Source: a virus (lineage: Duplodnaviria; Caudoviricetes). Taken from it: a stretch of DNA of 57,845 bases. The stretch lies in IMG/VR virus record IMGVR_UViG_3300025810_000007, positions 1 to 57,845 of that record. One strand, given 5' to 3'. Under the pieces are notes generated by a model. That model was not told where the DNA came from and searched no databases. It saw only the letters and a program-made list of their open reading frames with translations. Every line of letters starts with the position of its first letter. Positions within the stretch are counted from its first letter, which is position 1. Below are positions 12,846-33,188 of this stretch, piece by piece. A program made the position numbers and the translations under genes.

Positions 12846-13835
12846 TTAATTTACAGATTGTTGTTCTCGCAATAGTTGTTTGGCTATTGCTATTTTTTCC
12901 TCTCTAGTTTGTTCAACCTCATCAGTTAATAAATCAGCTAGATTAGTTGGACTATAAATAGATAATGCCATTGAACTACTTTCATTCAATACACTTTCAT
13001 TTAGTACAACACCTAATTTATCAGCTAACTCTTTTGCTTGGTCAAAGTATCTGTAAGATTTCAAACCAAGTTTTAGTTTTTGCATTTTCTTATCAACATG
13101 GTCAAAAAGATTTTTGTGTGCAAGAATTACATTGTCTTTTGCAACCATAAAAGATTTAAACCAATTATATTCTGCCTCATTGGTTTGAAACATACGACTA
13201 TGACAATAAGATGTTCCAATAACAATAAGTTTAAAATCATTTTCCCATTTATCTTTTTGAAAATCTGATTGTCCACTTACATCATTACGACTACCATAAC
13301 CCAAATATTTATTTACTGCACTTTCTGAATTATAATAAGTCGGATTTCTTTTGTCGTAATTGTCGCCAAGTCTTACATCATAATCTGCGTCAATGCCTTT
13401 TGCTTTCATCTCATCACGATAATAAGCAGTTAAAAATTCTTTATCTGCTTTAAACTCAACATGAACATCATCATATTTTTCAACTGGATTGTCGTTGTAG
13501 TCGGTGTCCATACGAGGTGTAGAGTTTTGAACATGAAAACAATTATCATCATATAATCTTCCACCACTTTCGCCATACTTATTAACCATAGAACGAATTG
13601 TATCTACATCTTCTTGTGGTTGATGAAATCTTACGAGATTATTTATTTTAACTTTTGCTTGTTCTCGCATATCATTGTAAGTTTCTTTTGCGTCTTGCCA
13701 TGCTTTCTTATATTTTGAATTATCTTCAAAATGGCTTTGAAATACATCTGCAATAACTTTTCTCTTATCTGCATTAAGAGTTTGTCTTTTTTCTTTAGTC
13801 ATGTTTCCTCTTTCTTGGTTATTTATTTTTTGCAT
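12846..13835 (-). CDS. Early hypothetical protein
   Basis: 329-aa ORF; alternative start at 13802 with AGAAAGAGG RBS; promoter immediately upstream. Confidence 0.8.
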   Translation of the reverse strand: MQKINNQERGNMTKEKRQTLNADKRKVIADVFQSHFEDNSKYKKAWQDAKETYNDMREQAKVKINNLVRFHQPQEDVDTIRSMVNKYGESGGRLYDDNCFHVQNSTPRMDTDYNDNPVEKYDDVHVEFKADKEFLTAYYRDEMKAKGIDADYDVRLGDNYDKRNPTYYNSESAVNKYLGYGSRNDVSGQSDFQKDKWENDFKLIVIGTSYCHSRMFQTNEAEYNWFKSFMVAKDNVILAHKNLFDHVDKKMQKLKLGLKSYRYFDQAKELADKLGVVLNESVLNESSSMALSIYSPTNLADLLTDEVEQTREEKIAIAKQLLREQQSVN

Positions 13836-13841
13836 GATTTG

Positions 13842-13880
13842 AAATTAGCACTTGACAAAAGGATTGTCAAGGATTATATA
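13842..13880. promoter_or_regulatory. Overlapping divergent sigma70 promoters
   Basis: Plus: TTGACA-17-TATATA. Minus: TTGACA-17-TAATTT. Two AGGAT boxes 10 bp apart (13860, 13870). Confidence 0.7.
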
Positions 13881-13885
13881 TGATG

Positions 13886-14136
13886 TTCAGCCTCATTTGA
13901 ATATTTATCGCTGAAACAAAACTATAAATATTCTGGGGACTTGCACCTACAAAAGCAAGTAGGATTAAAGCCAGGGATACACAGACAACCTGGCCTGATC
14001 CCTGGTTACTATACCATAGCCCGGTAAACATATGATACTATCGGGTCGGTCAATATAGGGAGCCCTAGAATAGTAACCTGGGATCAGTCAACGCGCCGCC
14101 GCCGCTAGAACACAGACAGTCTGGCGTTGGCTGGTC
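13886..14136 (+). ncRNA. Candidate structured non-coding RNA
   Basis: No ORF of 60 aa or more; downstream of a consensus promoter; five consecutive stem-loops including an 18-bp stem with one mismatch and two hairpins with ACACAGACA loops. Confidence 0.5.
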
Positions 14137-14156
14137 AAGCCGCAAGCTTCAAGCTT
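14136..14156 (+). repeat. CAAGCNN heptad array 1 (3 units)
   Basis: CAAGCCG CAAGCTT CAAGCTT, running into TTGACA. Confidence 0.8.
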
Positions 14157-14183
14157 GACAGCTGGTGAAGGATACTATAGGAT
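14155..14183 (+). promoter_or_regulatory. sigma70 promoter with tandem AGGAT boxes
   Basis: TTGACA-17-TAGGAT; AGGAT at 14169 and 14179. Confidence 0.7.
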
Positions 14184-14202
14184 GGATTTAGAAAGGAATA
14201 AT

Positions 14203-14328
14203 ATGGACAAAGAAATAAATGATAGATCAGTTAACCCGCTAATAAGAATAGCAGACGCTCTAGAAGAGATCCTGCGGCTGGTAAAGCAGGATATGGATCG
14301 AATGAAGAAAATAAATGAAGAGAATTAA
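14203..14328 (+). CDS. Small helical protein (41 aa, absent from ORF track)
   Basis: Hand translation MDKEINDRSVNPLIRIADALEEILRLVKQDMDRMKKINEEN*; AGAAAGGA RBS. Confidence 0.7.
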   Translation: MDKEINDRSVNPLIRIADALEEILRLVKQDMDRMKKINEEN

Positions 14329-14533
14329 ACACAATAATTTGCTGCCATGGTTCACACAGGACCATGGCACATTGCCGGCCGCGTACCTGGCCAGCTGTGA
14401 AGAGTTCTTCAAATGGTTAGAAGACTGCAAGCGCACCGGGTTCAAAGCTCCAAGCAACAAGCCGCAAGCTCCAGGCTGCAAGCTTGACAGCTGGCCGGAT
14501 TCATGTTATAGGATAATAAAGGAGAAATTATGA
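14315..14533 (+). CDS. Hypothetical protein whose C-terminus reads through a heptad array
   Basis: 72 aa MKRIKHNNLLPWF...; overlaps upstream stop and downstream ATGA. Confidence 0.55.
   Translation: MKRIKHNNLLPWFTQDHGTLPAAYLASCEEFFKWLEDCKRTGFKAPSNKPQAPGCKLDSWPDSCYRIIKEKL
14444..14485 (+). repeat. CAAGCNN heptad array 2 (6 units)
   Basis: AAAGCTC CAAGCAA CAAGCCG CAAGCTC CAGGCTG CAAGCTT, running into TTGACA. Confidence 0.85.
14484..14514 (+). promoter_or_regulatory. sigma70-type promoter for the GP88-like gene
   Basis: TTGACAGCTGG as at 14155, followed by TGTTATAGGAT. Confidence 0.55.
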
Positions 14534-15135
14534 AAACTGATGAAGCATTAAAAATTATAGGCGGCTCATTGAGCAAGCCTTCAAAGATGCCTGGCTGGTC
14601 AATTGGTTTACCTGCCAAAGAGTGCAAGACTGGCGGCAAGCTCCAGCAGGTGAAGGGCAGCGTCTGTTATGACTGTTACGCGCTCAAGGGCTGTTACGTT
14701 TTCAAAGTTGTTCAGGATGCACAGTATCGAAGGCTGGCAGCGTTGAAGAGTCCGGACTGGGTCCAGGCAATGGCTCACCTGATCAACAGCAAAAAGCCGG
14801 ACGTGTTCAGATGGCACGACAGCGGCGATGTACAAGATTTAAATCACTTACAAAAAATTTATGAAGTGTGCAAGTTAACACCTTCAAAAAAGCATTGGAT
14901 GCCAACTCGTGAAGCATGGATTAAGGACCATCTTCAGGATAAGCCAAACAATTTAGTCATACGATTTAGCGCGCCCATGGTGAACCAGCGGGCGCCTGCT
15001 TCGTGGCCTAACTCTTCAATGGTAGTGGACAAAGGTTTTCACACCTGCCCGGCTCCAGCTCAAGACAACGAGTGCAGAGACTGCAGACAATGTTGGGATC
15101 CAAAAATTAAAACGGTTTCATATGGTAAACATTAA
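14530..15135 (+). CDS. GP88-family Cys-rich protein (radical-SAM-like)
   Basis: SKMPG...C...CYDCYA...FRWHDSGD...NLVIRFS...CPA...CRDCRQCW; AAGGAG RBS. Confidence 0.75.
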   Translation: MKTDEALKIIGGSLSKPSKMPGWSIGLPAKECKTGGKLQQVKGSVCYDCYALKGCYVFKVVQDAQYRRLAALKSPDWVQAMAHLINSKKPDVFRWHDSGDVQDLNHLQKIYEVCKLTPSKKHWMPTREAWIKDHLQDKPNNLVIRFSAPMVNQRAPASWPNSSMVVDKGFHTCPAPAQDNECRDCRQCWDPKIKTVSYGKH

Positions 15136-15141
15136 AACAAA

Positions 15142-15220
15142 ATTCCCGCGTGGAATATCGGACCAGACTATTAGCGCTTCGGGCTCGTACGGCCTTACCA
15201 AGCGCGTACGTCCTGGTCCG
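15142..15220. other. Structured GC-rich intergenic element between convergent genes
   Basis: ATTCC/GGAAT hairpin; CGGACCAG/CTGGTCCG stem enclosing GCGCTT/AAGCGC. Confidence 0.55.
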
Positions 15221-15225
15221 GGCCT

Positions 15226-15339
15226 AAAGCTTCAAGCTACAAGCGCCAAGCTTCAAGCACCAAGTTTTGATAAATATAAATGACAAGCCTCAAGCCCCAA
15301 GCTGCAAGCTTCAAGCTCCAAGCCACAAGCAACAAGTTC
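15226..15339 (+). repeat. CAAGCNN heptad arrays 3 and 4 (6 + 8 units)
   Basis: Tandem 7-mers at 15226-15267 and 15284-15339. Confidence 0.9.
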
Positions 15340-16140: not shown

Positions 16141-16617
16141 ATGGGTGTTCCAAAAAGATTAACAGAGATGCAACAGAGGTTCGCAGAGTTTTTAGTATTC
16201 GGTGGACCAGATGGACCTATGACTCAAACAGAAGCAGCTATCGCTGCTGGGTATAGTCCTAAACGTGCAAGACAAGAAGGATCAGAATTATGCAACCCAA
16301 GACAATCACCTCTTGTTGTAAAATATATCGGTCAGTTAAGAGAAGAAAGACTTCGTAAACATGAAGTGACTTATGAAGGTCACGTTGCAGAGCTTGCTAG
16401 ACTCCGTGAAGCCGCTTTAAAAAAAGGATCGTTTTCTTCTGCAGTGAATGCGGAAGCAAACAGAGGAAAAGCAGCAGGACTATACATAGATAGGAAGATA
16501 ATAAAAACAGGAAAATTAGAGGACCTATCAGAACAAGAACTAGAAGCAAAAATGAAACAGATATTAGACGATTACGCACAGATAATTGATGTGACTCCAA
16601 AGGTTTCATCTTCTTAA
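16141..16617 (+). CDS. terS: Terminase small subunit
   Basis: LTEMQQRFAE...TQTEAAIAAGYS...ARQEGSEL...VVKYI, the Terminase_2-type HTH signature. Confidence 0.8.
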   Translation: MGVPKRLTEMQQRFAEFLVFGGPDGPMTQTEAAIAAGYSPKRARQEGSELCNPRQSPLVVKYIGQLREERLRKHEVTYEGHVAELARLREAALKKGSFSSAVNAEANRGKAAGLYIDRKIIKTGKLEDLSEQELEAKMKQILDDYAQIIDVTPKVSSS

Positions 16618-17208
16618 ATTAAAAGAAATAGATATTCTCTCCTCTTGACTAAAATTAGGCGTTACCAAATGTGGTAACCAACCTGGAAACAATAACAGTT
16701 TGTTTTCTTTAGGAGTGACGTTCCATGCAGGTAAGTTATGTGGTGTATACTTTTCCATCAAATGTGGTTCCCAATCATACTCTATAACATTGTTAGAAGG
16801 ATGTTTAAAATTTATAGTTCCTGAATTTTTAGGAACATTAATATAATAAACACCAGCTAACACAGCGTTAGGATGTATATGTTGTGAGTTCCAATCTTTA
16901 TAACCATTTACATTTACCCAAATATTTGAAATCTTTAATTTTTGAGAATAGTGTATTTTCTTTCTATATTCTTCTCCTGCTTTTAATATTTCTTTAAAAA
17001 GTTTACCTAAAACAGGTGTTTGTTTTATAACATCTTTTATAACAGGATCATCTCCACCCAGTTTTGGAGACTGCCAACCGCCTGCATTACTTGCATCAAA
17101 ACTAACTTTATGTCTTTGTTTAAATTTTAAACAATATTTAGATAACTCATTAAGATTTAATTTTAAATCTTTACTGTAAAGCAATGTAGGAAATAAATCT
17201 TCGAACAT
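16606..17208 (-). CDS. 2OG-Fe(II) oxygenase (TIGR02466-like)
   Basis: LFPT N-terminus, WVN, HIH, GVYY, FPGWLPH, RISISFN. Confidence 0.85.
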   Translation of the reverse strand: MFEDLFPTLLYSKDLKLNLNELSKYCLKFKQRHKVSFDASNAGGWQSPKLGGDDPVIKDVIKQTPVLGKLFKEILKAGEEYRKKIHYSQKLKISNIWVNVNGYKDWNSQHIHPNAVLAGVYYINVPKNSGTINFKHPSNNVIEYDWEPHLMEKYTPHNLPAWNVTPKENKLLLFPGWLPHLVTPNFSQEERISISFNLRR

Positions 17209-17501
17209 TAAATTTTTTGAATCTTCTTCACCCACTGACGAGGTATCATAGTACGATCCCCAAACGTAATACTATCCTCATCTAAATCATAAGACGCAAA
17301 TAGTTTTATTGAATCTTTATCTTTAGAGTATAACCAACCTTCATTAACAGGTCTTGCTAATTTCATTTTGTCAAACTCTTTGTCGGTAGCCCAGCCCGAG
17401 TCGCTGACACAATCAATCCACTCCACTCGAACTCTCGGATAAGGTATATCGGGAGCACCTTCAGCTGCAATTCGTTTTCGTCTTTTCCTAGGCATATTCA
17501 T
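17208..17501 (-). CDS. Conserved hypothetical phage protein
   Basis: VEWID...SGW...GWL...IP motif; candidate promoter TTGTCA-17-TAAAAA upstream. Confidence 0.7.
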   Translation of the reverse strand: MNMPRKRRKRIAAEGAPDIPYPRVRVEWIDCVSDSGWATDKEFDKMKLARPVNEGWLYSKDKDSIKLFASYDLDEDSITFGDRTMIPRQWVKKIQKI

Positions 17502-17512
17502 TTTTACTCTTT

Positions 17513-17783
17513 CGACACCTAAATGACAATTTATTTTTTTCTTGCGCTAAAAATAAAAAAAAACTGAAGGGTGTCGCAAAACCCTGAAATTGAGCTATAA
17601 CCGTTGGTATATATGAATAGTAGCTTCGACACCCCCCCCGTCGCAAGGGTATCGCAAGGGTATCGCAAGTGTCGACTTTTTGCCTCGATTTCGCCATAAT
17701 TGTACACTTCTGACGCAGTTTAGACCAAAGTTCGACACCTTTGCGACACCCTGCCGACACCCTGCCGACACCCATTCGATACC
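17513..17783. repeat. 11-bp iteron arrays (CGACACC/CGATACC core), candidate replication origin
   Basis: Five direct copies at 17733, 17744, 17755, 17766, 17777; inverted GGGTATCGCAA copies at 17647 and 17658 and GGGTGTCGCAA at 17569; A/T tracts at 17520-17565. Confidence 0.75.
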
Positions 17784-17838
17784 AGAGAGTCCTGGATAAA
17801 CTACGTGATAATCCTATAAATAGGTTAGTAATCATGAC

Positions 17839-18066
17839 CTATAATACCTGCTTGTCTGCCTTATTTTGGACATAATATTTCCTCATTACTGCCATTTTGT
17901 CTTCAGCTTCAGCAATAAGCTGTAATAGTTTGTCAACCTCACCTGTTATATCTATGTGTTCAGGTATAATTATATTGTTTTCATTAAAAGACTGTATCTT
18001 GTACCGTGCGTCTTCAATATCTGCTTCATACTTCTTTAGAAGTGTTCTAAATAACATTTCATTCAT
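17839..18066 (-). CDS. Hypothetical protein
   Basis: 75 aa helical (IPEHIDITGEVDKLL), GGAG RBS. Confidence 0.75.
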   Translation of the reverse strand: MNEMLFRTLLKKYEADIEDARYKIQSFNENNIIIPEHIDITGEVDKLLQLIAEAEDKMAVMRKYYVQNKADKQVL

Positions 18067-18169
18067 CTCTCCACCTCTTCATTATTATTTTATTATGTTC
18101 ATCTTCGTACATGATCCATGACTTTTTACCATCAAAGTAATACCCATGTATTTTTCTTTTTACTTTCAT
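18059..18169 (-). CDS. Small hypothetical protein (36 aa, absent from ORF track)
   Basis: Hand translation MKVKRKIHGYYFDGKKSWIMYEDEHNKIIMKRWRDE*; GAGGAGG RBS; ATGA coupling. Confidence 0.6.
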   Translation of the reverse strand: MKVKRKIHGYYFDGKKSWIMYEDEHNKIIMKRWRDE

Positions 18170-18930
18170 TTAAAGTCCTCCTCTTTCATTTTTACATTAG
18201 CTTGTTCTTTCTCATCATGTTTTATTTCATGATACATATCCAAACGTTTAAGAAACTTATGCTTCCACTTACGAAGCTCTGCTCCTTCAACTTTGAATTC
18301 TTGATAGTATAGATCAGGAGTACAAATCATTATAACTCCTTGTTCTATCTTACTATTATGCACATAGTCATGTGCCATGGCGTATGCAGCAATCTGCATA
18401 AAGTAATCTTCAATCCACTCTACTTTCTTTGGTCTGTTCGATTGTTTAAAATCTACAATAGATTCTTTACCATTATGAGAGCAAACTAAATCAGTAGACC
18501 CAGCGTAAAGGCCAGGATAATATAATGTAACTTCAGAGCCATACCACTCTTCAACAGGTGCAAGACCGATCTCAATAACTTTTTGGGCCATGGTTTTCGC
18601 CTTCTGTCCGAGCTCTGTAAGATCATCGTAGCCAGTTCCGAGGATATAGTGCTCCAAGAATTTGTGCATAGCTGTCCCCCGATTACTCGATAGATTTTTG
18701 ATTCGCTCTGCTTCTTGTTCTCCAACTTTGGCCTTCCAGTCTTTTAAAAATTGTTGATCTTTGGTCGCCCCTAATATCGTAGTGACAGAAGGAAGTCTAG
18801 TACCATTTACATCATAGAGCCGTGTTCCGTGGTCCTCGTGTCTTGTTGCATCGACATAGGTATACTTATCACTCTTCTTGATCTTTCGACCAATGTTATG
18901 AAATTCTCTTATATCTTCGTCATTCATCAT
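18166..18930 (-). CDS. PD-(D/E)xK exonuclease (MGME1/Cas4-like)
   Basis: LPSVTTIL, RGTAMH, E...YAGSTDL...IVDFKQS, QIAAY. Confidence 0.85.
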   Translation of the reverse strand: MMNDEDIREFHNIGRKIKKSDKYTYVDATRHEDHGTRLYDVNGTRLPSVTTILGATKDQQFLKDWKAKVGEQEAERIKNLSSNRGTAMHKFLEHYILGTGYDDLTELGQKAKTMAQKVIEIGLAPVEEWYGSEVTLYYPGLYAGSTDLVCSHNGKESIVDFKQSNRPKKVEWIEDYFMQIAAYAMAHDYVHNSKIEQGVIMICTPDLYYQEFKVEGAELRKWKHKFLKRLDMYHEIKHDEKEQANVKMKEEDFK

Positions 18931-19592
18931 TTATTTTTATCCTTTAAATATGCTGGAGCAAAATTTTTAATCGCATTCAATGGTGCTGAATCGTGTATAT
19001 TACCACTAACCGAGATCCGTGTACAATCACTCTTAAACGGTGCAACCCAGTGTTTTAACCACGCAGGAAAGATAAACATATCTCCTTCTTCAGGAAAGAA
19101 AGACATATAAGTTACACAATCTCTAGGTCCATTACCATAGATAAACTGTATACCTCCAGGTCCACAGCTCTTACCATTATAATCAGCATTCTCTTTTTTT
19201 AACTCTTCAGGTATCTGTAAGTATGTTACAAAAGACAACTTACCATCATGATCATGTGGTGGGTTAAACTCATTAGCTTTCTGATAATTTATCCACATAG
19301 TAGTCAAGATATATTCAGGTCTTTTCTCGTACGGTTTATTAATAAATTTTTCAAACATCTGGTCATATACACCAAGATATTGAGACATATACGGTACAGC
19401 TTTAGCTTTAGCTTCTTCACTATACCCCGTCTCTTTCTCTATGATTCCTGCTAGTTTATCTCTAAAATCTTTTTTATTATCTTTAGCTTCATTCAATAAA
19501 AAATTTTTAAACTCATCAGTTATCTTTAATTTAATAACACAGGGTCCCCAATTAAATACACTGACGTTTATCTTTTCTTGTTCATTACTCAT
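18927..19592 (-). CDS. 2OG-Fe(II) oxygenase
   Basis: WIN...NPPHDH...LSFV...FPAWLKH...RISVSGN. Confidence 0.85.
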   Translation of the reverse strand: MSNEQEKINVSVFNWGPCVIKLKITDEFKNFLLNEAKDNKKDFRDKLAGIIEKETGYSEEAKAKAVPYMSQYLGVYDQMFEKFINKPYEKRPEYILTTMWINYQKANEFNPPHDHDGKLSFVTYLQIPEELKKENADYNGKSCGPGGIQFIYGNGPRDCVTYMSFFPEEGDMFIFPAWLKHWVAPFKSDCTRISVSGNIHDSAPLNAIKNFAPAYLKDKNK

Positions 19593-19601
19593 ACTATCTC
19601 C

Positions 19602-20093
19602 TTATTTATCATAATAATTTATATTTAACACGACCCTTTGATTCTGATCTGTGCATGTGCTGCTTGAATGTTTTAGTTTAGAATTGAAAATGACCACTCT
19701 ATTGTCTACACAATCGACTTTACTACCATCTTCAAAGTGTGTTGCGCCATTTGTTGTGTTAAAATACATAATGGCTGTCTTATTTTTATTAGGTGGATCA
19801 TAATCTGTATGATAACCATGAATTAATTTTTTGTGTGATCTGGTTATTAAATTAGCTTTTACTCTCATGATTGCTTTACAATTTAATTTATTAACTATCG
19901 GTGGTACAATATCATTGTAGTAGTTGGACCACATCTTATGGTCTTCGTAGAAGAAATGTATAAACTGAAAACCTTCTTTATCTTCACGACTGTTTACATA
20001 ATCATTGTAGTGCCAAGGAAAAAACTCACCACATAAAATAGCTTTCATTTTTCCATATTCTTCTGGTTCTAAAAAATTATCTATTATCTTCAT
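19602..20093 (-). CDS. 2OG-Fe(II) oxygenase
   Basis: IIDNFL, HTD, KH, RVVLNINY. Confidence 0.8.
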   Translation of the reverse strand: MKIIDNFLEPEEYGKMKAILCGEFFPWHYNDYVNSREDKEGFQFIHFFYEDHKMWSNYYNDIVPPIVNKLNCKAIMRVKANLITRSHKKLIHGYHTDYDPPNKNKTAIMYFNTTNGATHFEDGSKVDCVDNRVVIFNSKLKHSSSTCTDQNQRVVLNINYYDK

Positions 20094-20698
20094 ATACTTA
20101 ATAAATTTAGTTCTAAATCATCACCGATTGTACCTTCTACAAAAACGTTAAAAGATAAACTTATTCTTAAATCATCTTCTTGTTTTACATCAACACCGTG
20201 CATTAAACTTGATGGAAACAAAAATATATCTCCTGTGTGAACAGGATGCCACCAAGACTTACAGTTGTAGGCATTAACTACTTCAGGTGTTAGCTCTATC
20301 ATAGGGTTATTATCTTTATAAAATTTTATAGTGTCTACTTCTCTATTTGCTTTAATATATAAGACTCCAGACAATACACTATTGGAGTGTCTGTGTATGT
20401 GATGACCTTGATTCTTTTCATTCCAGTTTAACCAAGATTGTGTAATGATAGGTGTTACATTGTTCTTACTTTGAAAAACATTATCAAAGTAATATTGTAT
20501 GCATGTAAATAATTTTTTTTTAAGTTTAACAAGATTCTTATCATGTAATACAAAAGTTTCTTTAGAATATTTATTACCCCCTGCATTTAATACAGCATTT
20601 TTTTTATATTTATCAAAACAATTCAATTCTTTATTTGTAAATGGTCTTGTCATTGCAGACATAAATATCGGTGTTGGAAATAAACCTTCTATTTTCAT
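20090..20698 (-). CDS. 2OG-Fe(II) oxygenase (TIGR02466-like)
   Basis: LFPTP, SWLN, HRH, SGVLY, FPSSLMH, RISLSFN. Confidence 0.85.
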   Translation of the reverse strand: MKIEGLFPTPIFMSAMTRPFTNKELNCFDKYKKNAVLNAGGNKYSKETFVLHDKNLVKLKKKLFTCIQYYFDNVFQSKNNVTPIITQSWLNWNEKNQGHHIHRHSNSVLSGVLYIKANREVDTIKFYKDNNPMIELTPEVVNAYNCKSWWHPVHTGDIFLFPSSLMHGVDVKQEDDLRISLSFNVFVEGTIGDDLELNLLSI

Positions 20699-21255
20699 CT
20701 AAACTTTGGTCCTCTTAAAAATATAGCTAATGTAATTCTCTCTCCTTTTGTAATAGGAGTTACTTTGTGATATGTTGGTGATTTAATCATAACAGTATCA
20801 CCAGGATTCTTAAACTCTGGTATCATAAACTCTTCACCTGTAAAAATTTTTAAGTCACCGCCTTCATATTTTTTTTCAGAAAGATTAATTAATATTGTTA
20901 ATTTGATATCGCAGTTCTCACCTTGTGTTGTTGCATCACAGTGCCAGCCATATTCAGAATCTTTACCTTTGTAAGAGTTATAATTTACATGGGCCCAATT
21001 GTTTAATGGAAATACATCATAACCAAAGACATCTTGATTTATGTAAGAATAATATTCTACTACCTCATTCAAATAGTCTTTCATCTTTCTCCAGGCTATG
21101 GTTTTTGTTGTAAGCTTTTTTACATCTTTGTAATTAGCTTTTACTGATTGTTCATTACCATCAAAATTTTTTTTTATATATTTATTTATATCTTTTATTT
21201 GTTTTGAATTTAAAAATGATTGTTTAAACCAGTATTCATATCTATTCTGAATCAT
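20695..21255 (-). CDS. 2OG-Fe(II) oxygenase (PKHD-like)
   Basis: YGWHCD, KLT, YEGGDL, YHKVTP, GERITL; start placed at 21255. Confidence 0.85.
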   Translation of the reverse strand: MIQNRYEYWFKQSFLNSKQIKDINKYIKKNFDGNEQSVKANYKDVKKLTTKTIAWRKMKDYLNEVVEYYSYINQDVFGYDVFPLNNWAHVNYNSYKGKDSEYGWHCDATTQGENCDIKLTILINLSEKKYEGGDLKIFTGEEFMIPEFKNPGDTVMIKSPTYHKVTPITKGERITLAIFLRGPKFR

Positions 21256-21403
21256 CTTCTTCTCTTTCTTTCTGTTCTTTTTCAAATCCTTCATCTAACA
21301 TTTCGGATAGTGTCTTTTCTTTCTTAAAAATTTCATCAAAGTTTTTACGATACAAATCATTAGAAGGTCTACTTATACCATCAAATTTTTCTTTTTTACT
21401 CAT
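21242..21403 (-). CDS. Small hypothetical protein (53 aa, absent from ORF track)
   Basis: Hand translation MSKKKKFDGISRPSNDLYRKNFDEIFKK...DDSE*; fills the gap between genes. Confidence 0.65.
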   Translation of the reverse strand: MSKKEKFDGISRPSNDLYRKNFDEIFKKEKTLSEMLDEGFEKEQKEREEDDSE

Positions 21404-21680
21404 AATCTGAATTATCTACAATTAAACTATCGTCATTTTTATTAAAAGGATATGGATGACCTAAACTAGAATTAAAATGTTTTCCAGGATATTCATACCA
21501 ACCTGTTACTTCTAAATGATCTCTAATTTTTTCTAAACTATGTTTAAAAAATCTTCTGTTTCTGTGATTTAAATATTTTTTAGTTAAATCATCATCAGCA
21601 TTGGCTACTAACCAACCCATTAGTGAATAAACATAATCTTCTTCATCTGTAAAATTTTTCTTTCTTTTAATATCAATCAT
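21396..21680 (-). CDS. Hypothetical protein
   Basis: 94 aa, ATGA coupled. Confidence 0.65.
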   Translation of the reverse strand: MIDIKRKKNFTDEEDYVYSLMGWLVANADDDLTKKYLNHRNRRFFKHSLEKIRDHLEVTGWYEYPGKHFNSSLGHPYPFNKNDDSLIVDNSDYE

Positions 21681-21859
21681 AGTTTTCTTTTTAACTCTTC
21701 TAAATATTCAAAGTTTTCTTGACGTCTTACTAACTCTTCCATCTCTTTGCTTTGTTTAGTTCGAAGTATTTTTGCATGTTTACGCCATGCCCAGGAATTT
21801 ATCTGTCCTGACCATTTCATAATAAAATGTAAACCTTCGTATATGTATTTATCGAACAT
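21677..21859 (-). CDS. Hypothetical protein
   Basis: 60 aa, GAGG RBS, operon position. Confidence 0.65.
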   Translation of the reverse strand: MFDKYIYEGLHFIMKWSGQINSWAWRKHAKILRTKQSKEMEELVRRQENFEYLEELKRKL

Positions 21860-22289
21860 TGTTCTTTACCTCTCTGTACTCTTCTAAACTTATAACATTA
21901 TCTTTTAATGCTTTTTGTGTGTAATGTTCTATTACCTTTTGTATCTTTGGTAGCTTTGTATGAGCCCAAGGCCAAATCAAACAACACACATAGTATGCGT
22001 CTCTAAATGTACAACGCCATCTATATTGTTTCAAGTATGGAGTTCCATCAACTCGTTTACCTTTTCTAGGTTTATCGGTTAGTGTACCACAACCTAATAT
22101 TTCGTGGACCCATGTTAGAACAGATTTATCAGTCATGGTTATCTCCATTGATAAACGTAAACTGTTTGACAATCTATATCCTGGTTTACCCTTGTGTCGT
22201 TTCTTTTTTTCAATACCTCTTCGCATATGTATTGATCCTTCACCATCAAATAATCCTGCAATGTATGCTTTGTCTGTATCAGGAATCAT
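21849..22289 (-). CDS. Free-standing single-motif LAGLIDADG protein
   Basis: AYIAGLFDGEGSI helix, ITMTD, G-G, YRW, TK motifs. Confidence 0.8.
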   Translation of the reverse strand: MIPDTDKAYIAGLFDGEGSIHMRRGIEKKKRHKGKPGYRLSNSLRLSMEITMTDKSVLTWVHEILGCGTLTDKPRKGKRVDGTPYLKQYRWRCTFRDAYYVCCLIWPWAHTKLPKIQKVIEHYTQKALKDNVISLEEYREVKNNVR

Positions 22290-22362
22290 ATTTCCTCACA
22301 TGTATCAGTATAGCTAATACAACAATTGAAACTGCAGTGCCTAAAAAAAACAAACCTATCAT
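22279..22362 (-). CDS. 27-aa transmembrane peptide (absent from ORF track)
   Basis: Hand translation MIGLFFLGTAVSIVVLAILIHVRKYDS*; GGAG RBS; ATGA coupling. Confidence 0.55.
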   Translation of the reverse strand: MIGLFFLGTAVSIVVLAILIHVRKYDS

Positions 22363-22487
22363 TTTTTATCTCCGGTAAAGACCCACTTCACTATTGACGT
22401 TGTTGGATCAAATCCATCAAATCTTAAATCTTTAGTGCATGCTGTCAGAAGTACCATCATCAATCCAACCCATATCAGTTGTCTCAT
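22359..22487 (-). CDS. 42-aa lipoprotein (absent from ORF track)
   Basis: Hand translation MRQLIWVGLMMVLLTA-C-TKDLRFDGFDPTTSIVKWVFTGDKK*; LTAC lipobox; GGAGG RBS. Confidence 0.7.
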   Translation of the reverse strand: MRQLIWVGLMMVLLTACTKDLRFDGFDPTTSIVKWVFTGDKK

Positions 22488-22623
22488 AGAACTCACCCTC
22501 CGAATCACAATCCCAACACTGGTGTATTGTGTCTTGTCCTTCTGTTGCCACTTTTAAATATCCATTACCCTTACAAGTCTGGCAGATAGTTATTGTGACT
22601 TTAGCTTTTTTTAATTTTGCCAT
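22432..22623 (-). CDS. DnaJ-type zinc-finger protein
   Basis: CQTCKGNG and CWDCDSEG. Confidence 0.75.
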   Translation of the reverse strand: MAKLKKAKVTITICQTCKGNGYLKVATEGQDTIHQCWDCDSEGEFYETTDMGWIDDGTSDSMH

Positions 22624-22774
22624 TTAATTTCTTTGCTTTCTCGTTTGCTATTGATTCAATCGTCTTTGCTATAGATAATTTAGCATCGGGCAATAATACC
22701 TTTGATAACTTATCTAAAGTAGCGTATGTTTCTTTTGTTAGAGAAACATTTTTATATTTACTCATGTCTGTCAT
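22601..22774 (-). CDS. Putative ribbon-helix-helix regulator (57 aa, absent from ORF track)
   Basis: Hand translation MTDMSKYKNVSLTKETYATLDKLSKVLLPDAKLSIAKTIESIANEKAKKLNGKIKKS*; strand-helix-helix pattern; GAAAGGA RBS; first gene after a promoter. Confidence 0.65.
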   Translation of the reverse strand: MTDMSKYKNVSLTKETYATLDKLSKVLLPDAKLSIAKTIESIANEKAKKLNGKIKKS

Positions 22775-22799
22775 GCGTTTCCTTTCATATTTAATAACT

Positions 22800-22829
22800 T
22801 ATATATAGGTGATATTGTAGGATTGTCAA
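22800..22829 (-). promoter_or_regulatory. sigma70 promoter with ATCCTACAAT box
   Basis: TTGACA-ATCCTACAATATCACC-TATATA. Confidence 0.65.
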
Positions 22830-23044
22830 TGAAAATATTATTAACTTTATTAATTTGTTCACAAGTTGCAGGTGCTTGTATGGAGCCATATAAATGGCCT
22901 GATAAGTTCAATACACAATATGATTGTCTTATGTTTGGCTATGAAGAATCTTTAAAAAAAATGAAAGAAATAGGTAGAACTGATGTTAATCAATATAATA
23001 TGTTTGTTAAATTCTACTGCACACCAGAAAAACCTAGCATTTGA
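22829..23044 (+). CDS. Small exported Cys-containing protein
   Basis: MKILLTLLICSQVAGAC signal-like N-terminus, four Cys. Confidence 0.65.
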   Translation: MKILLTLLICSQVAGACMEPYKWPDKFNTQYDCLMFGYEESLKKMKEIGRTDVNQYNMFVKFYCTPEKPSI

Positions 23045-23089
23045 CATTGTGGCAAAATAATGATAAAGGAAATTTAATTTCTCACCATT

Positions 23090-23124
23090 ACCTACCCTTA
23101 TTTTTTTCCCTCTTTAGGGTAGGT
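23090..23124. terminator. Hairpin between convergent genes
   Basis: ACCTACCCT/AGGGTAGGT, 9-bp stem. Confidence 0.55.
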
Positions 23125-23127
23125 GTA

Positions 23128-23340
23128 TCATCTACAGATACATCCTTGTAAACTACCACTACCATCATTCATAATGTGTAGGTTTAACGTGTCAACATAT
23201 CCTGTTAATTTTAGTCTTAATATTTCGCACAGGTCCATGCAATCGACTTCGCCCAATAAAGACACATGTTCCATCATCTGCTTTGACAACGGAATTAATT
23301 GATATAGTCCGTCGTTTAAAATAATTAGCTCCATCTGCAA
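23128..23340 (-). CDS. Hypothetical protein
   Basis: 70 aa, AAGGAG RBS. Confidence 0.6.
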   Translation of the reverse strand: MQMELIILNDGLYQLIPLSKQMMEHVSLLGEVDCMDLCEILRLKLTGYVDTLNLHIMNDGSGSLQGCICR

Positions 23341-23434
23341 ACTCCTTTACTAATTTATACCAAAGATCTTTGTAGTAAGGATCTTTAGTTTTATTCCAAT
23401 TGTTAGCTGCTTCGTCTATTTCTTTTTGTGTCAT
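23192..23434 (-). CDS. Hypothetical protein
   Basis: DEAANNWNKTKDPYYKDLWYK; 3' half overlaps the next gene. Confidence 0.5.
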   Translation of the reverse strand: MTQKEIDEAANNWNKTKDPYYKDLWYKLVKEFADGANYFKRRTISINSVVKADDGTCVFIGRSRLHGPVRNIKTKINRIC

Positions 23435-23606
23435 CAAAAACTTTTGTTCCATGATTCAAAACACTTTTTAATCCTGGTGCTTTTATATTTATGTCAACAC
23501 CATAAGACTTCCATGCTTTCTTCATTAGATTTAATTCTAACAACAGATGAGACCACTGACCCTGCGCTGCATCTTCTACTTTTATTGTTATTACTTTTTC
23601 TTTCAT
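23403..23606 (-). CDS. Hypothetical protein, probably leaderless
   Basis: 67 aa; ATG 6 nt after a -10 box. Confidence 0.7.
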   Translation of the reverse strand: MKEKVITIKVEDAAQGQWSHLLLELNLMKKAWKSYGVDINIKAPGLKSVLNHGTKVFDDTKRNRRSS

Positions 23607-23612
23607 ATCTAT

Positions 23613-23640
23613 AATGTAGGATACTTCAGGATATTGTCAA
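23613..23640 (-). promoter_or_regulatory. sigma70 promoter with tandem ATCCT boxes
   Basis: TTGACA-16-TACATT; AGGAT at 23618 and 23628 on the plus strand. Confidence 0.65.
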
Positions 23641-23777
23641 CCTTTACCTTGACCTTTATATCTAGTTTGTTTTTGCTGTCTTTTTTCGTGTTTACTTTTA
23701 TTTTTCTTGTGTTGCCGTGCACCTCTTTTTTTAGGTTTATCACGAGGTGTAAAATGTTTAAAGGTTCTCTTGGCCAT
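23637..23777 (-). CDS. 46-aa very basic protein ending YKGQGKG (absent from ORF track)
   Basis: Hand translation MAKRTFKHFTPRDKPKKRGARQHKKNKSKHEKRQQKQTRYKGQGKG*. Confidence 0.65.
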   Translation of the reverse strand: MAKRTFKHFTPRDKPKKRGARQHKKNKSKHEKRQQKQTRYKGQGKG

Positions 23778-23976
23778 CTGTCCAATCTTTTACAAATACA
23801 TTCATATCTTCTTGTCTAGTTATGTGTGGTAAGTAAGTTATCTTTCCGTTTATATGCTGTTCAAGATCAGCACCACAATTCATACATCTATACATTTCTT
23901 TTGTAAGTCCAACTAACATTGTGAACTCATCACACGTTGGACATTTGCCATTTACGATTTCCGCTGTAATTTTCAT
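23758..23976 (-). CDS. Zinc-ribbon protein
   Basis: CPTC and CMNCG; TAATG coupled. Confidence 0.7.
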   Translation of the reverse strand: MKITAEIVNGKCPTCDEFTMLVGLTKEMYRCMNCGADLEQHINGKITYLPHITRQEDMNVFVKDWTDGQENL

Positions 23977-24194
23977 TAATCTAATATTAACTTCTTTATA
24001 GATAAAGATCCATCAATATTTTGCTCTAACTCTGCCATAGATTTTATGCACTGGTACTTGACATGTCCATCAGGTTTTAACTGACGTTTAGCTACACGTG
24101 CCCCCTTGAGACATTCAGACATCGAAGTTTGGATACGTGCCTCCTTGATCTCTCCTTGTACAATCATAAGTAGGGCTACCACTAACTCTGTCAT
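23976..24194 (-). CDS. Hypothetical protein
   Basis: 72 aa, hydrophobic N-terminus, two Cys. Confidence 0.65.
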   Translation of the reverse strand: MTELVVALLMIVQGEIKEARIQTSMSECLKGARVAKRQLKPDGHVKYQCIKSMAELEQNIDGSLSIKKLILD

Positions 24195-24355
24195 AATATT
24201 TTACCTTTGTTAATACCTTGCTTTACAACGTACTTTTGTGTACCATGCTTGCCAGTTTCAACTTCTTTTTTTAAATTCTTAACAAAGTTCATTTGTTTAG
24301 CTTTCTTTTCCATGTCAGAAATATATTGCACAATTTGTCTAGTAATTCTTTCCAT
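24191..24355 (-). CDS. Small hypothetical protein (54 aa, absent from ORF track)
   Basis: Hand translation MERITRQIVQYISDMEKK...GTQKYVVKQGINKGKIL*; ATGA coupling. Confidence 0.6.
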   Translation of the reverse strand: MERITRQIVQYISDMEKKAKQMNFVKNLKKEVETGKHGTQKYVVKQGINKGKIL

Positions 24356-24716
24356 TTTCTCTAACCTTATCTTTTAAGTTTTCAATATCCTCTAATGCTT
24401 TTTCTAATTGTTCTCTTAAAAATTCTATATTAACTTTGTTTGTCATATTCATCTCTTGAGTTTGTTCCATTTTCTCTACGGTCTTATAAAGATCTTCGAT
24501 CAAAAAATGTTGTTCCTGGTCCGTGGGCACTTGTTCACTTTTTTTTAACAAATCATTCTCAAACAACTCACGTGATGTCTCCAACGATACTAATCTCGCC
24601 GTAAGCTCCGTGTATGCGAACACGCCGGCTGCGACGAGCAAAATCAAGCTAGCAACCGTCTTCATCGGCATCTGCACGGCAGCGGATTCAGATATGTTTA
24701 AAGGTTTCTTACTCAT
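24339..24716 (-). CDS. Membrane-anchored coiled-coil protein
   Basis: N-terminal TM segment (VASLILLVAAGVFAY) followed by a coiled coil. Confidence 0.7.
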   Translation of the reverse strand: MSKKPLNISESAAVQMPMKTVASLILLVAAGVFAYTELTARLVSLETSRELFENDLLKKSEQVPTDQEQHFLIEDLYKTVEKMEQTQEMNMTNKVNIEFLREQLEKALEDIENLKDKVRENGKNY

Positions 24717-25287
24717 TTATTTTTGGTTTTGGTAATGGTAATATTATATTCTCATCTGTCAAGTATTTCGGTATTTTTAGCTTCTTTTTACTGGGTTTTA
24801 TGAATTTATCTCCCATTAAAGTGACGTCTGGATTCTCTTTTTTGTAATCATCTTTCATATCATCCCACAAACTTTGTGAATCAGATGGTCTAGTATTATC
24901 TCGTGTAGGAGTGACACCTCTGCATTTAGATACAAGTAAGGCAAAGTTTTCATTAAGAGCTAGACTAGGATTGCTATTTACTCTACCACACATCTTCATC
25001 AATTCTAATTGTTGTTTGATTGCTACGTTTTCTTTTGATGTTTTACAATCTGTACCTAAATATTTTCTGTAAGTAAATCTTATACCTTGTTGTTCATTTG
25101 TACTACTATCACTGTAATCATAATCAGTGTCTCTTCTCTCTGTACTAATTTCAAATTCTCCACATCTTACACCATACTCGTTAAGATATTCATTTCTAGG
25201 ATAAGCAGGCTGCATAAATAAAGCCATAAAACAAAGCATAAGTATGAGTATCGCTGTAAATCTGTAATCCATCTTGGCTATCTCCAT
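24709..25287 (-). CDS. Exported or membrane-anchored hypothetical protein
   Basis: Signal/TM segment, then a domain with four Cys. Confidence 0.7.
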   Translation of the reverse strand: MEIAKMDYRFTAILILMLCFMALFMQPAYPRNEYLNEYGVRCGEFEISTERRDTDYDYSDSSTNEQQGIRFTYRKYLGTDCKTSKENVAIKQQLELMKMCGRVNSNPSLALNENFALLVSKCRGVTPTRDNTRPSDSQSLWDDMKDDYKKENPDVTLMGDKFIKPSKKKLKIPKYLTDENIILPLPKPKINE

Positions 25288-25293
25288 AATTCA

Positions 25294-25593
25294 TTACCTA
25301 TTTAAATCCTTAATATCATAGTCGTGTTCTCTGACTTGATCTGCTAGTTGTCTATATAAATTTTCTGCCATCTGCCACGTAGATTCTGCAGAAGTTAGTC
25401 TTGTGTTTTGATCTACAATTTTATCTTCAACTACTTTTAAATCTCTTTTTAAATCTACAATTTCTTGCTGACTAGTATTAATAGTATCTGTAAGATTAAC
25501 AATATAACGAACGCCAGTAAATGTACCAACTAGCACTGAAGCTACTACCGGCACTAATACAAAATTTTTTTTTAATAAATCTGCTAAATTCAT
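25294..25593 (-). CDS. Membrane-anchored coiled-coil protein
   Basis: TM segment (FVLVPVVASVLVGTF) plus heptad coiled coil. Confidence 0.7.
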   Translation of the reverse strand: MNLADLLKKNFVLVPVVASVLVGTFTGVRYIVNLTDTINTSQQEIVDLKRDLKVVEDKIVDQNTRLTSAESTWQMAENLYRQLADQVREHDYDIKDLNR

Positions 25594-26237
25594 TTTTTCT
25601 TTTCCTCAATTTCATAGAAGAACTTGTCCGTATCTTCTGTACGCCAGGCTCTACTATCTTCTACATTCCATTCAGATGTTTGCACTTTCCAGTCAGGTAT
25701 ATTATCTTTTACAGTAAAAGAAGGTATATCCCATATACATCTATTGTTTGGTTGTGCTGCATAATTACCATCGTCTAATGCAATTATGTGAGCGCACTTA
25801 TGTTCGTGCGGAATCTCTGAATGATCAGTGTCTAGTATATTACTCTCTGGGTGTGCAAAATCAACAGTAAATAAATATTTACCTGGATGCCATTTTTTAT
25901 CTTTACCTATGTATTTGCCAGCTTGTCCGTCTAGAATATCCCAAGAATGCACAGAAGGATAATAAGAGAAACAATTCCAAAGCTGTAGTTCATCAAGTCT
26001 TCTGGTTGGTACGTCTTCGACTTTGAAACCACGTTGAATAAACGCGCTAATTGGGAGGCGATAAAAGATTGCACCGTTTTCCATAATAGCGTGCCATAAG
26101 ATGCTGCGACCTGTAAGAGCGCTAATACCAAAGATAACACAGTCTTCAACTTCTCCATGATGTTTTTGTAAGTCATATAAATACTCCTTTTTTATTTGCG
26201 CATATACTACAGGAATGTTTGCATTTAAGTAAGCCAT
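25590..26237 (-). CDS. Conserved hypothetical protein
   Basis: 215 aa with LQLWNCFSY, HEHKCAH, AAQPNNR motifs; immediately downstream of the polymerase. Confidence 0.75.
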   Translation of the reverse strand: MAYLNANIPVVYAQIKKEYLYDLQKHHGEVEDCVIFGISALTGRSILWHAIMENGAIFYRLPISAFIQRGFKVEDVPTRRLDELQLWNCFSYYPSVHSWDILDGQAGKYIGKDKKWHPGKYLFTVDFAHPESNILDTDHSEIPHEHKCAHIIALDDGNYAAQPNNRCIWDIPSFTVKDNIPDWKVQTSEWNVEDSRAWRTEDTDKFFYEIEEKKK

Positions 26238-26246
26238 AAATTAACC

Positions 26247-28208: not shown

Positions 28209-28443
28209 TATAATCTCTCTCCAATATCATTTCTAAATAGTGTATTGCCTTCTTTATATCTTGCTCTTTCCCTTTCGACTGATGTCGACAGATATACTTT
28301 ATAGCATTACCCTCTGCAAAAAGCAATTTGTTCTCATTAATAAACTCTGCTGGTTGAATCTTCATCGATCGATAGTGCTTCCCACCTACCTGCTCTTCTA
28401 ATGAAGAGTATGTTGTTCCTTTAAATATATCTTTGTGTGTCAT
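28201..28443 (-). CDS. DUF3310 (SaV-like) protein
   Basis: QVGGKHY...IQP...GNAIKYICR...KG...DIKKAIHYLE. Confidence 0.85.
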   Translation of the reverse strand: MTHKDIFKGTTYSSLEEQVGGKHYRSMKIQPAEFINENKLLFAEGNAIKYICRHQSKGKEQDIKKAIHYLEMILERDYNV

Positions 28444-31416: not shown

Positions 31417-31424
31417 AAATTAAA

Positions 31425-31458
31425 AGTGGGCGTATCCACTCTCGCTTCGACGCCCACT
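31425..31458 (-). terminator. Intrinsic terminator or attenuator upstream of the primase gene
   Basis: AGTGGGCGT/ACGCCCACT 9-bp stem followed by TTTAATTT and then the ATG. Confidence 0.65.
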
Positions 31459-31468
31459 ACCTAGGATC

Positions 31469-32221: not shown

Positions 32222-32223
32222 GT

Positions 32224-32775: not shown

Positions 32776-33133
32776 CTATTTCTCCTTTCTCGTATAGATT
32801 AATTTCAATAGGATAATATTTTCTTTCTTGTTTATCCCACTTCAATACATTGTATTTGCCGTTTGTAATATCAGATACAATAGAACATGCAACACCAATG
32901 ATTGCAGGATCTCCTGTTAATAATAAATAATCTTCTGGTTTATAATTTCTTAAACCTTTTCTTAATTTAAAAATTAATGGACCAGGAGAAAAAATCATTT
33001 GAGAAAACTCTGGTAATAAAAAAATAAAATCATTGGTTGTAGAATAAGCAGCTGCACCCATAATATTTATTTTAGGAGTACCTGCTTGGCTACCTGGTAT
33101 CTCTTGTATTACATAAACTTTTCTTTCTGACAT
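32765..33133 (-). CDS. Conserved replication-module protein
   Basis: VYVIQE...DYLLLTGDP...LKWDKQ...YYP; first gene of the replication operon. Confidence 0.7.
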   Translation of the reverse strand: MSERKVYVIQEIPGSQAGTPKINIMGAAAYSTTNDFIFLLPEFSQMIFSPGPLIFKLRKGLRNYKPEDYLLLTGDPAIIGVACSIVSDITNGKYNVLKWDKQERKYYPIEINLYEKGEIDDN

Positions 33134-33169
33134 TGACAAACAATATAATCATGTTTATATAGATGTCAA
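33133..33169. promoter_or_regulatory. Overlapping divergent sigma70 promoters
   Basis: Plus: TTGACA-17-TATATA. Minus: TTGACA-16-TATATT-8-ATG. Confidence 0.7.
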
Positions 33170-33188
33170 CTAGAAAGAAAAAAAAATT

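Follow-up and report, generated by a model that had tools for sequence, protein, structure and literature searches.

Positions 13886–14136 of the pelagiphage genome analyzed here very probably encode a real structured RNA. Its folds have been conserved under selection on the transcribed strand, related phages shuffle its modules like cassettes, and a large clade of HTVC023P/027P-type pelagiphages carries it at a syntenic locus. An earlier reading, made from the letters of this DNA alone (the sequence-only reading), had proposed a strand-specific structured RNA lying 3′ of a sigma-70-type promoter, and covariation in relatives bears this out. The feature is real and interesting. As to what the RNA does, the explanation that we favor as a whole, with a probability of roughly 0.4, is a structured leader or precursor that would be processed and would then refold.

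Genome context and promoters

The window, by which we mean the whole 57,845-nucleotide stretch of DNA that was analyzed, is IMGVR_UViG_3300025810_000007, a complete 57.8-kb virus record and the genome of an HTVC027P-like Pelagibacter phage. Its large terminase has 71% identity to the counterpart in Pelagibacter phage HTVC027P. Almost every gene of this genome lies on the minus strand. A short plus-strand island starts at a divergent promoter near 13.85 kb and contains a 41-aa ORF, a 72-aa ORF, a GP88-family gene (PF17338), and the small terminase. The element lies within a 369-nt gene-free gap, bordered upstream by the divergent 329-aa gene (12846–13835, minus strand) and downstream by the 41-aa ORF (14203–14328, plus strand), at a position between the terminase genes and adjoining heptad repeat arrays. 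GC content is 0.47 in the element versus 0.35 genome-wide. The sequence-only reading had noted 250 nt without a long ORF, and there is indeed no plus-strand ORF of 30 aa or more within 13886–14136.

The TTGACA-17-TATATA promoter named in that reading is present and conserved in relatives. This promoter, P1 (13852–13880, plus strand), was read from the sequence as TTGACA at 13852–13857, a 17-nt spacer, and TATATA at 13875–13880; a consensus promoter scan omits it because the −10 box has A, not T, at position 6. Its −35 box sits inside a palindrome, CTTGACAA/TTGTCAAG (13851–13871), from which the divergent 329-aa gene also obtains a leftward TTGACA. Relatives have kept the palindromic promoter at their loci as TTGACA-17-TATAWW (TTGACA...GTCAAG..TATAWW). 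Where the element ends, heptads (NCAAGCN) and a second promoter follow at 14137–14183 on the plus strand; the promoter scan placed its TTGACA at 14155, followed by 17 nt and TAGGAT, and it drives the 41-aa ORF. The heptads have 15 matches in the window versus 0.35 expected, all within 14137–15337. In relatives, between roughly 170 and 920 nt separate the P1-type promoter from the next one.

Relatives were collected in two ways. A search with the 329-aa protein gave 133 viral loci, 80 of which were taken for comparison, and a pattern search for the long hairpin (hairpin C, below) gave at least 120 further viral stretches. In 118 pattern-derived viral loci, the C hairpin occupied the same syntenic locus each time: the downstream same-strand gene was GP88 or the 72-aa ORF in 97 of the 118, the 329-aa gene lay upstream on the opposite strand in 64, and 27, mostly contig ends, had no upstream match. 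Hairpin C is always co-directional with the conserved promoter and is confined to one locus per genome, with no scattered copies and a single copy in the window. We also considered host mimicry by the exact C pattern and rejected it: bacterial and archaeal genomes totaling 596 Gb gave 34 matches, about the number estimated for chance (approximately 34), with none of the matches titled Pelagibacter.

Fold and conservation of the modules

As plus-strand RNA, the element folds at −88.2 kcal/mol (z −5.45), and none of 200 shuffles was equally stable; the minus strand gave a z of −2.89, with 2 of 200 shuffles equally stable. An inverted-repeat search and direct reading recovered all of the stems that the sequence-only reading had named, each where it had been placed. 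That reading had also proposed covariation among homologs as a check, and the stems do covary in relatives.

The element begins with module A (13886–13933, plus strand), an H-type pseudoknot according to covariation in relatives. Pair counts define its first helix, S1, as TCAGC (13887–13891) with GCTGA (13910–13914), and its second, S2, as GAATATTTAT/ATAAATATTC (13899–13908/13924–13933), which is 100% complementary. The loops are CTCATTT (L1), C (L2), and the A-rich AACAAAACT (L3). The sequence-only reading had described the first hairpin and overlooked the second helix that makes it a pseudoknot. In 20 distinct relatives, 94 of 100 cells of S1 were paired, with two to four pair types at four of five positions, and 189 of 200 cells of S2 were paired, with several Watson–Crick pair types at three positions. 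These counts used a register fixed by invariant sequence anchors, and slid controls were 18–53% paired. On a MAFFT alignment the pseudoknot was 92.7% paired versus 76.7% in shuffles, and its covariation score was 0.426 versus 0.135 when shuffled (0 of 500 shuffles as high); this count took in three of the five S1 pairs, S1 having no single register across subtypes, and the rest were anchor-counted. A second subtype has the same topology, UUCC-CUUUU-GCUAAU-AUAC-GGAA-UUAAAAAACUCAA-AUUAGC. L1, L3, and the upper end of S2 are more invariant in sequence than pairing requires. Since S1 begins 6–7 nt past the −10 box, the pseudoknot would lie at or adjoining the predicted 5′ end of the transcript. 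In phage 023Pt_psg01, a lone module A pseudoknot comes directly before the RBS, and the start codon is approximately 25 nt farther downstream.

The next module, the GGGAC hairpin (13936–13966, plus strand), pairs ACTTGC (13939–13944) with GCAAGT (13955–13960) around the loop ACCTACAAAA, after which comes a conserved AGGATT. All 78 cells were paired in 13 distinct relatives, with double changes at four of six positions, compared with 22–37% paired in slid controls. The competing CCTAC/GTAGG helix that the sequence-only reading had placed here did not hold up, as it is broken by a loop change without compensation in 10 of the 13 relatives.

Hairpin B (13970–13994, plus strand) consists of GCCAGG/CCTGGC (13970–13975/13989–13994) and a conserved 13-nt loop, GATACACAGACAA, also given as GAUACACAGACAA. 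In relatives, this loop (GAUACACWGACAA or GUUAACACWGACAA) is carried by at least nine different covarying stems. Hairpin B adjoins hairpin C with zero spacer. When 208 upstream contexts were inspected by eye, nearly every one had a hairpin ending 0–2 nt before C.

Hairpin C (13995–14087, plus strand) is the long hairpin, with 18-nt arms (13995–14012/14070–14087) that are 94% complementary with one mismatch. At its base is an invariant 8-bp duplex, CUGAUCCC/GGGAUCAG, followed by a U.U mismatch and a G-C pair; above this is a covarying upper stem of 8–9 bp and a hypervariable apex (14013–14069), in which two small hairpins are predicted. Across 215 distinct sense-strand copies, positions 1–8 were essentially invariant pairs, position 9 was U.U in 203, position 10 was G-C, and positions 10–18 were paired, with compensatory changes and up to six pair types each (slid controls, 27–46% paired). 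The sequence-only reading had pointed out that imperfect pairs were mostly G-U on the plus strand, and this extends to the relatives: positions 1–19 contain 200 G.U pairs on the sense strand versus 25 on the antisense strand, including 65 U-G pairs at position 17. Consistent with this strand preference, the sense fold was more stable than the antisense fold in 39 of 46 copies (p = 8e-8). More distant relatives have a second family, C′, which shares with C only the core 5′-SCUGG/CCUGS-3′ and has the U.U mismatch in 23 of 23 copies.

The apex of C is 14–108 nt long; the 215 copies have apices of 181 clusters, and that of the window is unique among the loci compared. Some loci that are near-identical in their flanks have unrelated apices, exchanged exactly at the conserved arms (e.g., L004 versus L005), and pieces of apices recur in other scaffolds of the same locus in other contigs. 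The recurrence of these cargo motifs in other scaffolds suggests that the apices have functions of their own. An antisense or guide role was considered and rejected, as the apices match only same-locus hairpins of other contigs; within a database made up of the compared loci and the window, no apex matched a coding region.

The last module, hairpin D (14082–14136, plus strand), pairs GATCAGTCAACGC with GCGTTGGCTGGTC (14082–14094/14124–14136), including two G.U pairs, and a GC-rich run lies at 14091–14103. The last six bases of C, GAUCAG, are also the start of the 5′ arm of D. As the sequence-only reading had recognized, these two stems compete for this segment, and the competition is real and conserved: the D partner is CUGGUC or CUGAUC, in every case complementary to GAUCAG. 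Of the 215 C copies, 92 have a D stem of nine or more contiguous pairs on their 3′ side, against an estimated 4% or so by chance, and D lies 3′ of the last C in 68 of 136 arrays. The search for D itself selects for pairing, and its covariation at positions 7–9 is therefore partly circular. In the intact window RNA, the C-closed form is favored by 9.5 kcal/mol, and a fragment starting inside the 3′ arm of C is predicted to fold into a 13-bp, 5′-terminal D hairpin. The window contains three sets of mutually competing complementary segments in total, and the third competitor is CCAGGGAU (13971–13978), which is complementary to AUCCCUGG (13998–14005).

Inside D is a second hairpin with the 9-mer ACACAGACA, in which CGCTAGA (14103–14109) pairs with TCTGGCG (14120–14126) on the plus strand. 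The 9-mer occurs at 13979 and 14110 on the plus strand and at 20388 on the minus strand, giving three matches in the window versus 0.65 expected; 2 of 100 shuffles reach three copies. The sequence-only reading was correct that the same loop occurs twice in the element. It had placed the loop on two different stems. These stems are not unrelated: the two hairpins share a 16-nt direct repeat, 88% identical, that covers the 3′ stem arm, and they are therefore paralogues.

Known families and rejected candidates

The sequence-only reading did not recognize a known family, and a search of Rfam 15 agrees: the whole window had no match at gathering thresholds, and positions 13800–14250 gave only four weak snoRNA-type matches (E 1.5–8.2, 14–19 bits). 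The C hairpin of a relative returned only spurious miRNA-like matches, the loci of 40 relatives had no match to any family at gathering thresholds, and ARAGORN identified 0 tRNA or tmRNA genes in the window. For module A, Rfam gave no match to an H-type pseudoknot riboswitch (preQ1-I/II, SAM-II/V, and others) at E values up to 10. A curated family does occur in the syntenic gap of HTVC027P, namely Flavobacterium-1 (RF02976; 90.2 bits, E 4.5e-18, same strand), adjoining one C hairpin and one C′ hairpin; therefore, the locus can be described as a mosaic of structured modules. The gathering score of RF02976 (58.9 bits) was not reached in the window or in any of the loci of 40 other relatives.

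Several known kinds of element were tried and set aside. A type III toxin–antitoxin RNA (ToxI-like, approximately 36-nt tandem repeats beside an endoribonuclease toxin gene) was rejected, as 13886–14134 has no tandem repeat, only 7-nt heptads are present from 14135, and the neighboring ORFs have no PADLOC match (seven neighboring ORFs, none with a defense-related match). A CRISPR array or solitary repeat does not fit arms that are inverted rather than direct, arm-adjacent sequence that pairs and covaries, and apices of 14–108 nt. A MITE or other terminal-inverted-repeat element is at odds with one copy at the same syntenic site in 118 loci and with arms that consistently differ (T versus T). 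A packaging RNA like the phi29 pRNA was rejected because both terminase subunits are present.

We found no paper on non-coding RNA in pelagiphages, and the pelagiphage papers searched do not mention these modules; a literature query on RNase III likewise brought up none. A term search of the main text of PMC12753301 returned no mention of intergenic RNA, and the main text of PMC5737381 does not discuss Flavobacterium-1.

Transcript type and proposed processing

The sequence-only reading had proposed a discrete early sRNA. A leader or precursor is somewhat the more probable type of transcript, because no terminator-like site was found in a scan of the sequence after 13886 and because the modules of relatives run straight into an RBS and ORF or lie between ORFs. 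For example, AGAAAGGA-N-ATG is found within a few bases 3′ of D in several relatives, and in 023Pt_psg01 a B-C-D set is located between ORFs. Also in keeping with a leader, HTVC027P transcribes the genes downstream at 6–9 h post infection (PMC12753301). The other form of the earlier proposal, an array processed into several RNAs, is a live reading and close to the best explanation. With respect to expression, none of 24 metatranscriptome runs contained half or more of the sampled words. Contigs of four RNA libraries cover parts of 13904–14246, some without differences, and show neither strand nor ends, and so are no evidence of transcription; these contigs also span the flanking genes on both strands, so DNA carry-over is possible. 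The low contig cover over 14002–14055 can be attributed to apices that differ in the relatives present.

The processing that we propose would proceed as follows. A host-RNA-polymerase transcript would start at P1, at approximately 13886, with the element as its 5′ part, a non-coding multi-domain RNA made up of interchangeable modules (the pseudoknot, the GGGAC hairpin, B, C, and D). The C duplex, at approximately 18 bp with its U.U mismatch, could be where a double-strand-specific endonuclease binds and cuts, in the manner of the T7 early-RNA sites; the most plausible enzyme is host RNase III, whose presence in the SAR11 host is assumed. Cleavage would free GAUCAG to pair with the downstream CUGGUC, and hairpin D would thereby become a protective stem–loop at the 5′ end of the 3′ product. 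The pseudoknot might protect the primary 5′ end in a similar way, and the excised apex and loop modules could be set free as small, stable RNAs.

The tentative part of this explanation is the RNase III-type processing and the refolding, and we would put the odds against it. An RNase III site of the T7 R1.1 type is a duplex of approximately two helical turns, in which a mismatch or internal loop is common, and across its 215 distinct copies C has a duplex of this type, consisting of 8 bp, the U.U mismatch, and 9–10 bp. In this model, an invariant lower stem of C is expected, since one of its strands has two partners to pair with. The candidate is an enzyme of the host because a Pfam scan of 28 ORFs (20 in the replication region, 16606–35565, and 8 neighbors, with the structural half of the genome outside its scope) found no RNA-processing enzyme, reverse transcriptase, integrase, or transposase. 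However, refolding cannot be the general purpose of C because 68 of the 136 arrays are without D. Sequence identity of this kind is not a known requirement of RNase III, and the invariant duplex fits a sequence-specific binding protein as well as it fits a nuclease; for the conserved loops and the reusable cargo motifs, protein binding fits at least as well. The functions of their own that the apices may have are also left unexplained by the processing model.

Alternative explanations

The sequence-only reading had also suggested a protein sponge. In such a trans-acting decoy or sponge, the B loop, the base of C, and the apex motifs would bind host or phage proteins, and the RNA would titrate or recruit them during takeover of the cell. 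One 13-nt loop on so many covarying stems is a signature of loop-specific recognition; the two paralogous loop hairpins of the window, the core with U.U, invariant in two otherwise different kinds of hairpin (203 of the 215 copies of C and all 23 copies of C′), and the reuse of cargo motifs across scaffolds point the same way. Known sponges carry many repeats, however, and here each motif has only one to three copies per genome. The seven ORFs analyzed with PADLOC include no defense-related neighbor and the RNA is without a terminator of its own, and we consider this role doubtful. A cis-regulatory leader would instead act on the downstream operon, with the pseudoknot as a ligand- or protein-sensing aptamer and mutually exclusive helices (GAUCAG with CUGAUC or CUGGUC; AUCCCUGG with CCAGGGAU or CCUGGGAU) as the switch. 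The lone pseudoknot directly before the RBS in 023Pt_psg01 is what would be expected of such an aptamer, as are invariant loops and S2 top that pairing does not require, and the three competing sets of segments would supply the switch. Yet the C-closed state is favored (9.5 kcal/mol), neither a terminator nor an RBS-masking helix was found, and no riboswitch model in Rfam was matched at E values up to 10. Between the element and the first ORF, the window has a strong promoter separate from P1, so the downstream genes are not dependent on the leader. Taken together, a regulatory switch appears decidedly unlikely.

Two further explanations concern the DNA or its replication. At the DNA level, single-stranded hairpins could be recombination sites, a replication origin, packaging signals, or miniature mobile elements. 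This would account for the cassette-like replacement of apices, including the exact swaps at the arms between near-identical flanks (L004 versus L005), and both the conserved base with a variable apex, which resembles integron attC, and the location between the terminase genes beside the heptad arrays would be in keeping with it. While G.T pairs are tolerated in DNA hairpins too, G.U is used here as freely as Watson–Crick pairs (e.g., the 65 U-G pairs at position 17 of C), a pseudoknot with an A-rich loop is an RNA fold, and the orientation always follows the conserved promoter. Recombination or transposition is also hard to reconcile with a single locus and no dispersed copies, with a T.T mismatch by which the two "terminal repeats" consistently differ, and with 28 scanned ORFs that include no integrase or transposase; GC skew merely follows gene direction. 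A DNA-level element is consequently very unlikely. We give even less credence to a replication primer or pre-primer RNA like ColE1 RNA II, whose folding would govern an R-loop at a nearby origin and whose variable loops would set specificity. The RNA is strongly structured and promoter-proximal, has a GC-rich run and hypervariable apices, and adjoins repeat arrays and several promoters, as such a primer might. However, GC skew, following only gene direction, gives no sign of an origin, no antisense promoter or antisense RNA was identified, and the likeness to ColE1 RNA II is purely analogical.

Implications

A broader and rather unlikely reading is that these arrays are a combinatorial RNA cassette system, in which scaffold stems would act as fixed joints and pelagiphages would exchange structured RNA cargos from a shared repertoire. 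The core of the joint would be the 5′-CUG/3′-GUC duplex with the U.U mismatch. If this were true, one of the most abundant groups of ocean phages would have a hypervariable RNA locus, the equivalent of gene-cassette arrays at the level of RNA. Should the diversity be under selection and not neutral, the cargos might act as decoys for RNA-targeting or RNA-sensing functions of the host; alternatively, they could set specificity between competing phages. Published work places the HTVC023P/027P-type pelagiphages, whose host is SAR11, the dominant bacterium of surface oceans, among the world's most abundant phages (PMC11066056, PMC9599517). Their early genes are all described as being of unknown function (PMC12753301). 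A conserved, heavily structured, rapidly reshuffled locus that is absent from Rfam thus offers a new handle on host takeover. The structured leader or precursor that we favor is open to direct testing for transcription, processing, and function, because the cultured HTVC027P/HTCC1062 pair carries the modules and has a published RNA-seq time course (PMC12753301). The invariant U.U duplex, the 13-nt loop on many stems, and the 5′ pseudoknot are also of interest for RNA structure itself.

Comparison with known systems

The closest likeness to the proposed processing is found in the early RNA of T7, with its RNase III processing hairpins R0.3 to R1.3, and in that of Bacillus phage SP82, with its conserved processing hairpins. 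Like these, the C hairpins are repeated and sequence-related, span approximately two helical turns with an internal mismatch or loop, have variable upper stems and loops, and are promoter-proximal, between or ahead of ORFs, with a host-polymerase transcript predicted here. In contrast to T7 and SP82, the lower 8 bp of C are sequence-invariant, the apex of 14–108 nt contains sub-motifs that are reused, a second, conserved partner exists for the 3′ arm, no ORF lies between the modules in the window, and cleavage is a proposal here.

Module A, a compact H-type pseudoknot with an A-rich loop 3 at the predicted 5′ end of a phage leader, can be compared with the 5′ pseudoknot of the T4 gene 32 mRNA leader and with H-type aptamers such as preQ1-I and SAM-II/V. 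Helix 2 of module A, at 10 bp, is much longer than that of preQ1-I. Among curated families, Flavobacterium-1 is an orphan sRNA motif in the same promoter-proximal gap and on the same strand in the sister phage HTVC027P, and the window differs in being without a match to its model.

Integron attC sites have a conserved imperfect base, a variable terminal structure, extrahelical bases, R/L boxes, and a tyrosine recombinase as partner. The C hairpin shares with them the imperfect conserved base, a variable terminal structure of 20–100 nt, strand specificity, and cassette-like exchange. An attC identity was nonetheless rejected: no integrase is present among the 28 ORFs scanned, the arms have no R/L boxes (GTTRRRY), and no ORF cassettes are found between sites. 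The mismatch is also a U.U pair rather than extrahelical bases, and the evidence favors RNA.

The same data source has yielded objects of the same kind. A 2023 study assembled 8,495 candidate structured RNAs (csRNAs, named "DNAVirus_X") from IMG/VR intergenic regions; they are conserved, covarying, 29–151 nt long, and from uncultivated phages, some are palindromic, and none has an assigned function (PMC10690425). That catalogue may contain some of the modules described here. Its authors handle motifs singly, and a modular syntenic array is not described (PMC10690425). Structured leaders and non-coding RNAs of phages are already a known kind of object; it is the scaffold-and-cargo architecture, together with the invariant U.U duplex, that is unusual.

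Promoter architecture around the element

The structured non-coding RNA region would be transcribed from a predicted promoter that overlaps a neighbour. A palindrome, CTTGACAA-N5-TTGTCAAG (13851-13871), places one TTGACA -35 box on each strand, and the promoter of the rightward RNA therefore overlaps, back to back, that of the leftward operon encoding the 329-aa protein and the terminase. This palindrome is kept in relatives. Downstream, pattern matching located arrays of the heptad NCAAGCN on the plus strand at 14137-14154, 14445-14483, and 15227-15337, with 3 to about 16 copies each. The heptad has 15 matches in the window against 0.35 expected, and every match lies within a single 1.2-kb stretch. 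Two of the arrays lead straight into TTGACA -35 boxes (promoters at 14155 and about 14485), an arrangement common to all of the relatives' loci examined. Possible roles for the arrays are activator sites, UP-like elements, or iterons. Here the promoter repeats also run over coding sequence, since a 72-aa ORF (14315-14533, plus strand) terminates within the heptads and the -35 box of the next promoter, and its homologues in relatives have the same kind of end, inside promoter repeats.

Neighboring genes

Antisense to the element, and overlapping it, is a 54-aa ORF (13867-14031, minus strand), which we take to be spurious because large insertions, deletions, and replacements distinguish the relatives at this position. 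Farther downstream, also on the minus strand, five consecutive ORFs (16606-21294) match the 2OG-Fe(II) oxygenase families PF13759 or PF13640, one of them (19602-20093) below Pfam's cutoff; judged by these family matches, they are a putative tandem paralogue array. For a 146-aa ORF (21849-22289, minus strand), the family match is to PF00961, the LAGLIDADG homing endonucleases (E 6e-6).

Related hairpins in other phages

The conserved loop is not limited to the rightward RNA, for hairpins bearing GUUAACACWGACAA on 8-bp covarying stems were found on the leftward-operon strand, opposite to the main array, in three loci from relatives (L116, about 10992, plus strand; L172, about 3248, plus strand; L195, reverse complement, about 6073). 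In a more distant clade, a second family of scaffold hairpins with the sequence AUCAUUAUUUGCUGGWCC ... GGWCCUGCUAAUGAU (e.g., in L076, L080, L081, and at 2770-2850 of L001, the HTVC027P locus), stands in for or alongside hairpin C, the long hairpin of the window's array. Only a CUG / U.U / GG core is common to the two. The syntenic gap of HTVC027P (MN698241), a cultured phage, also holds a strong match (90.2 bits; L001 2865-2985) to Flavobacterium-1, an orphan Rfam motif; at its 3' end the match has a stem rich in GC and then UUAUAUGAUUU, a combination that looks like a terminator.
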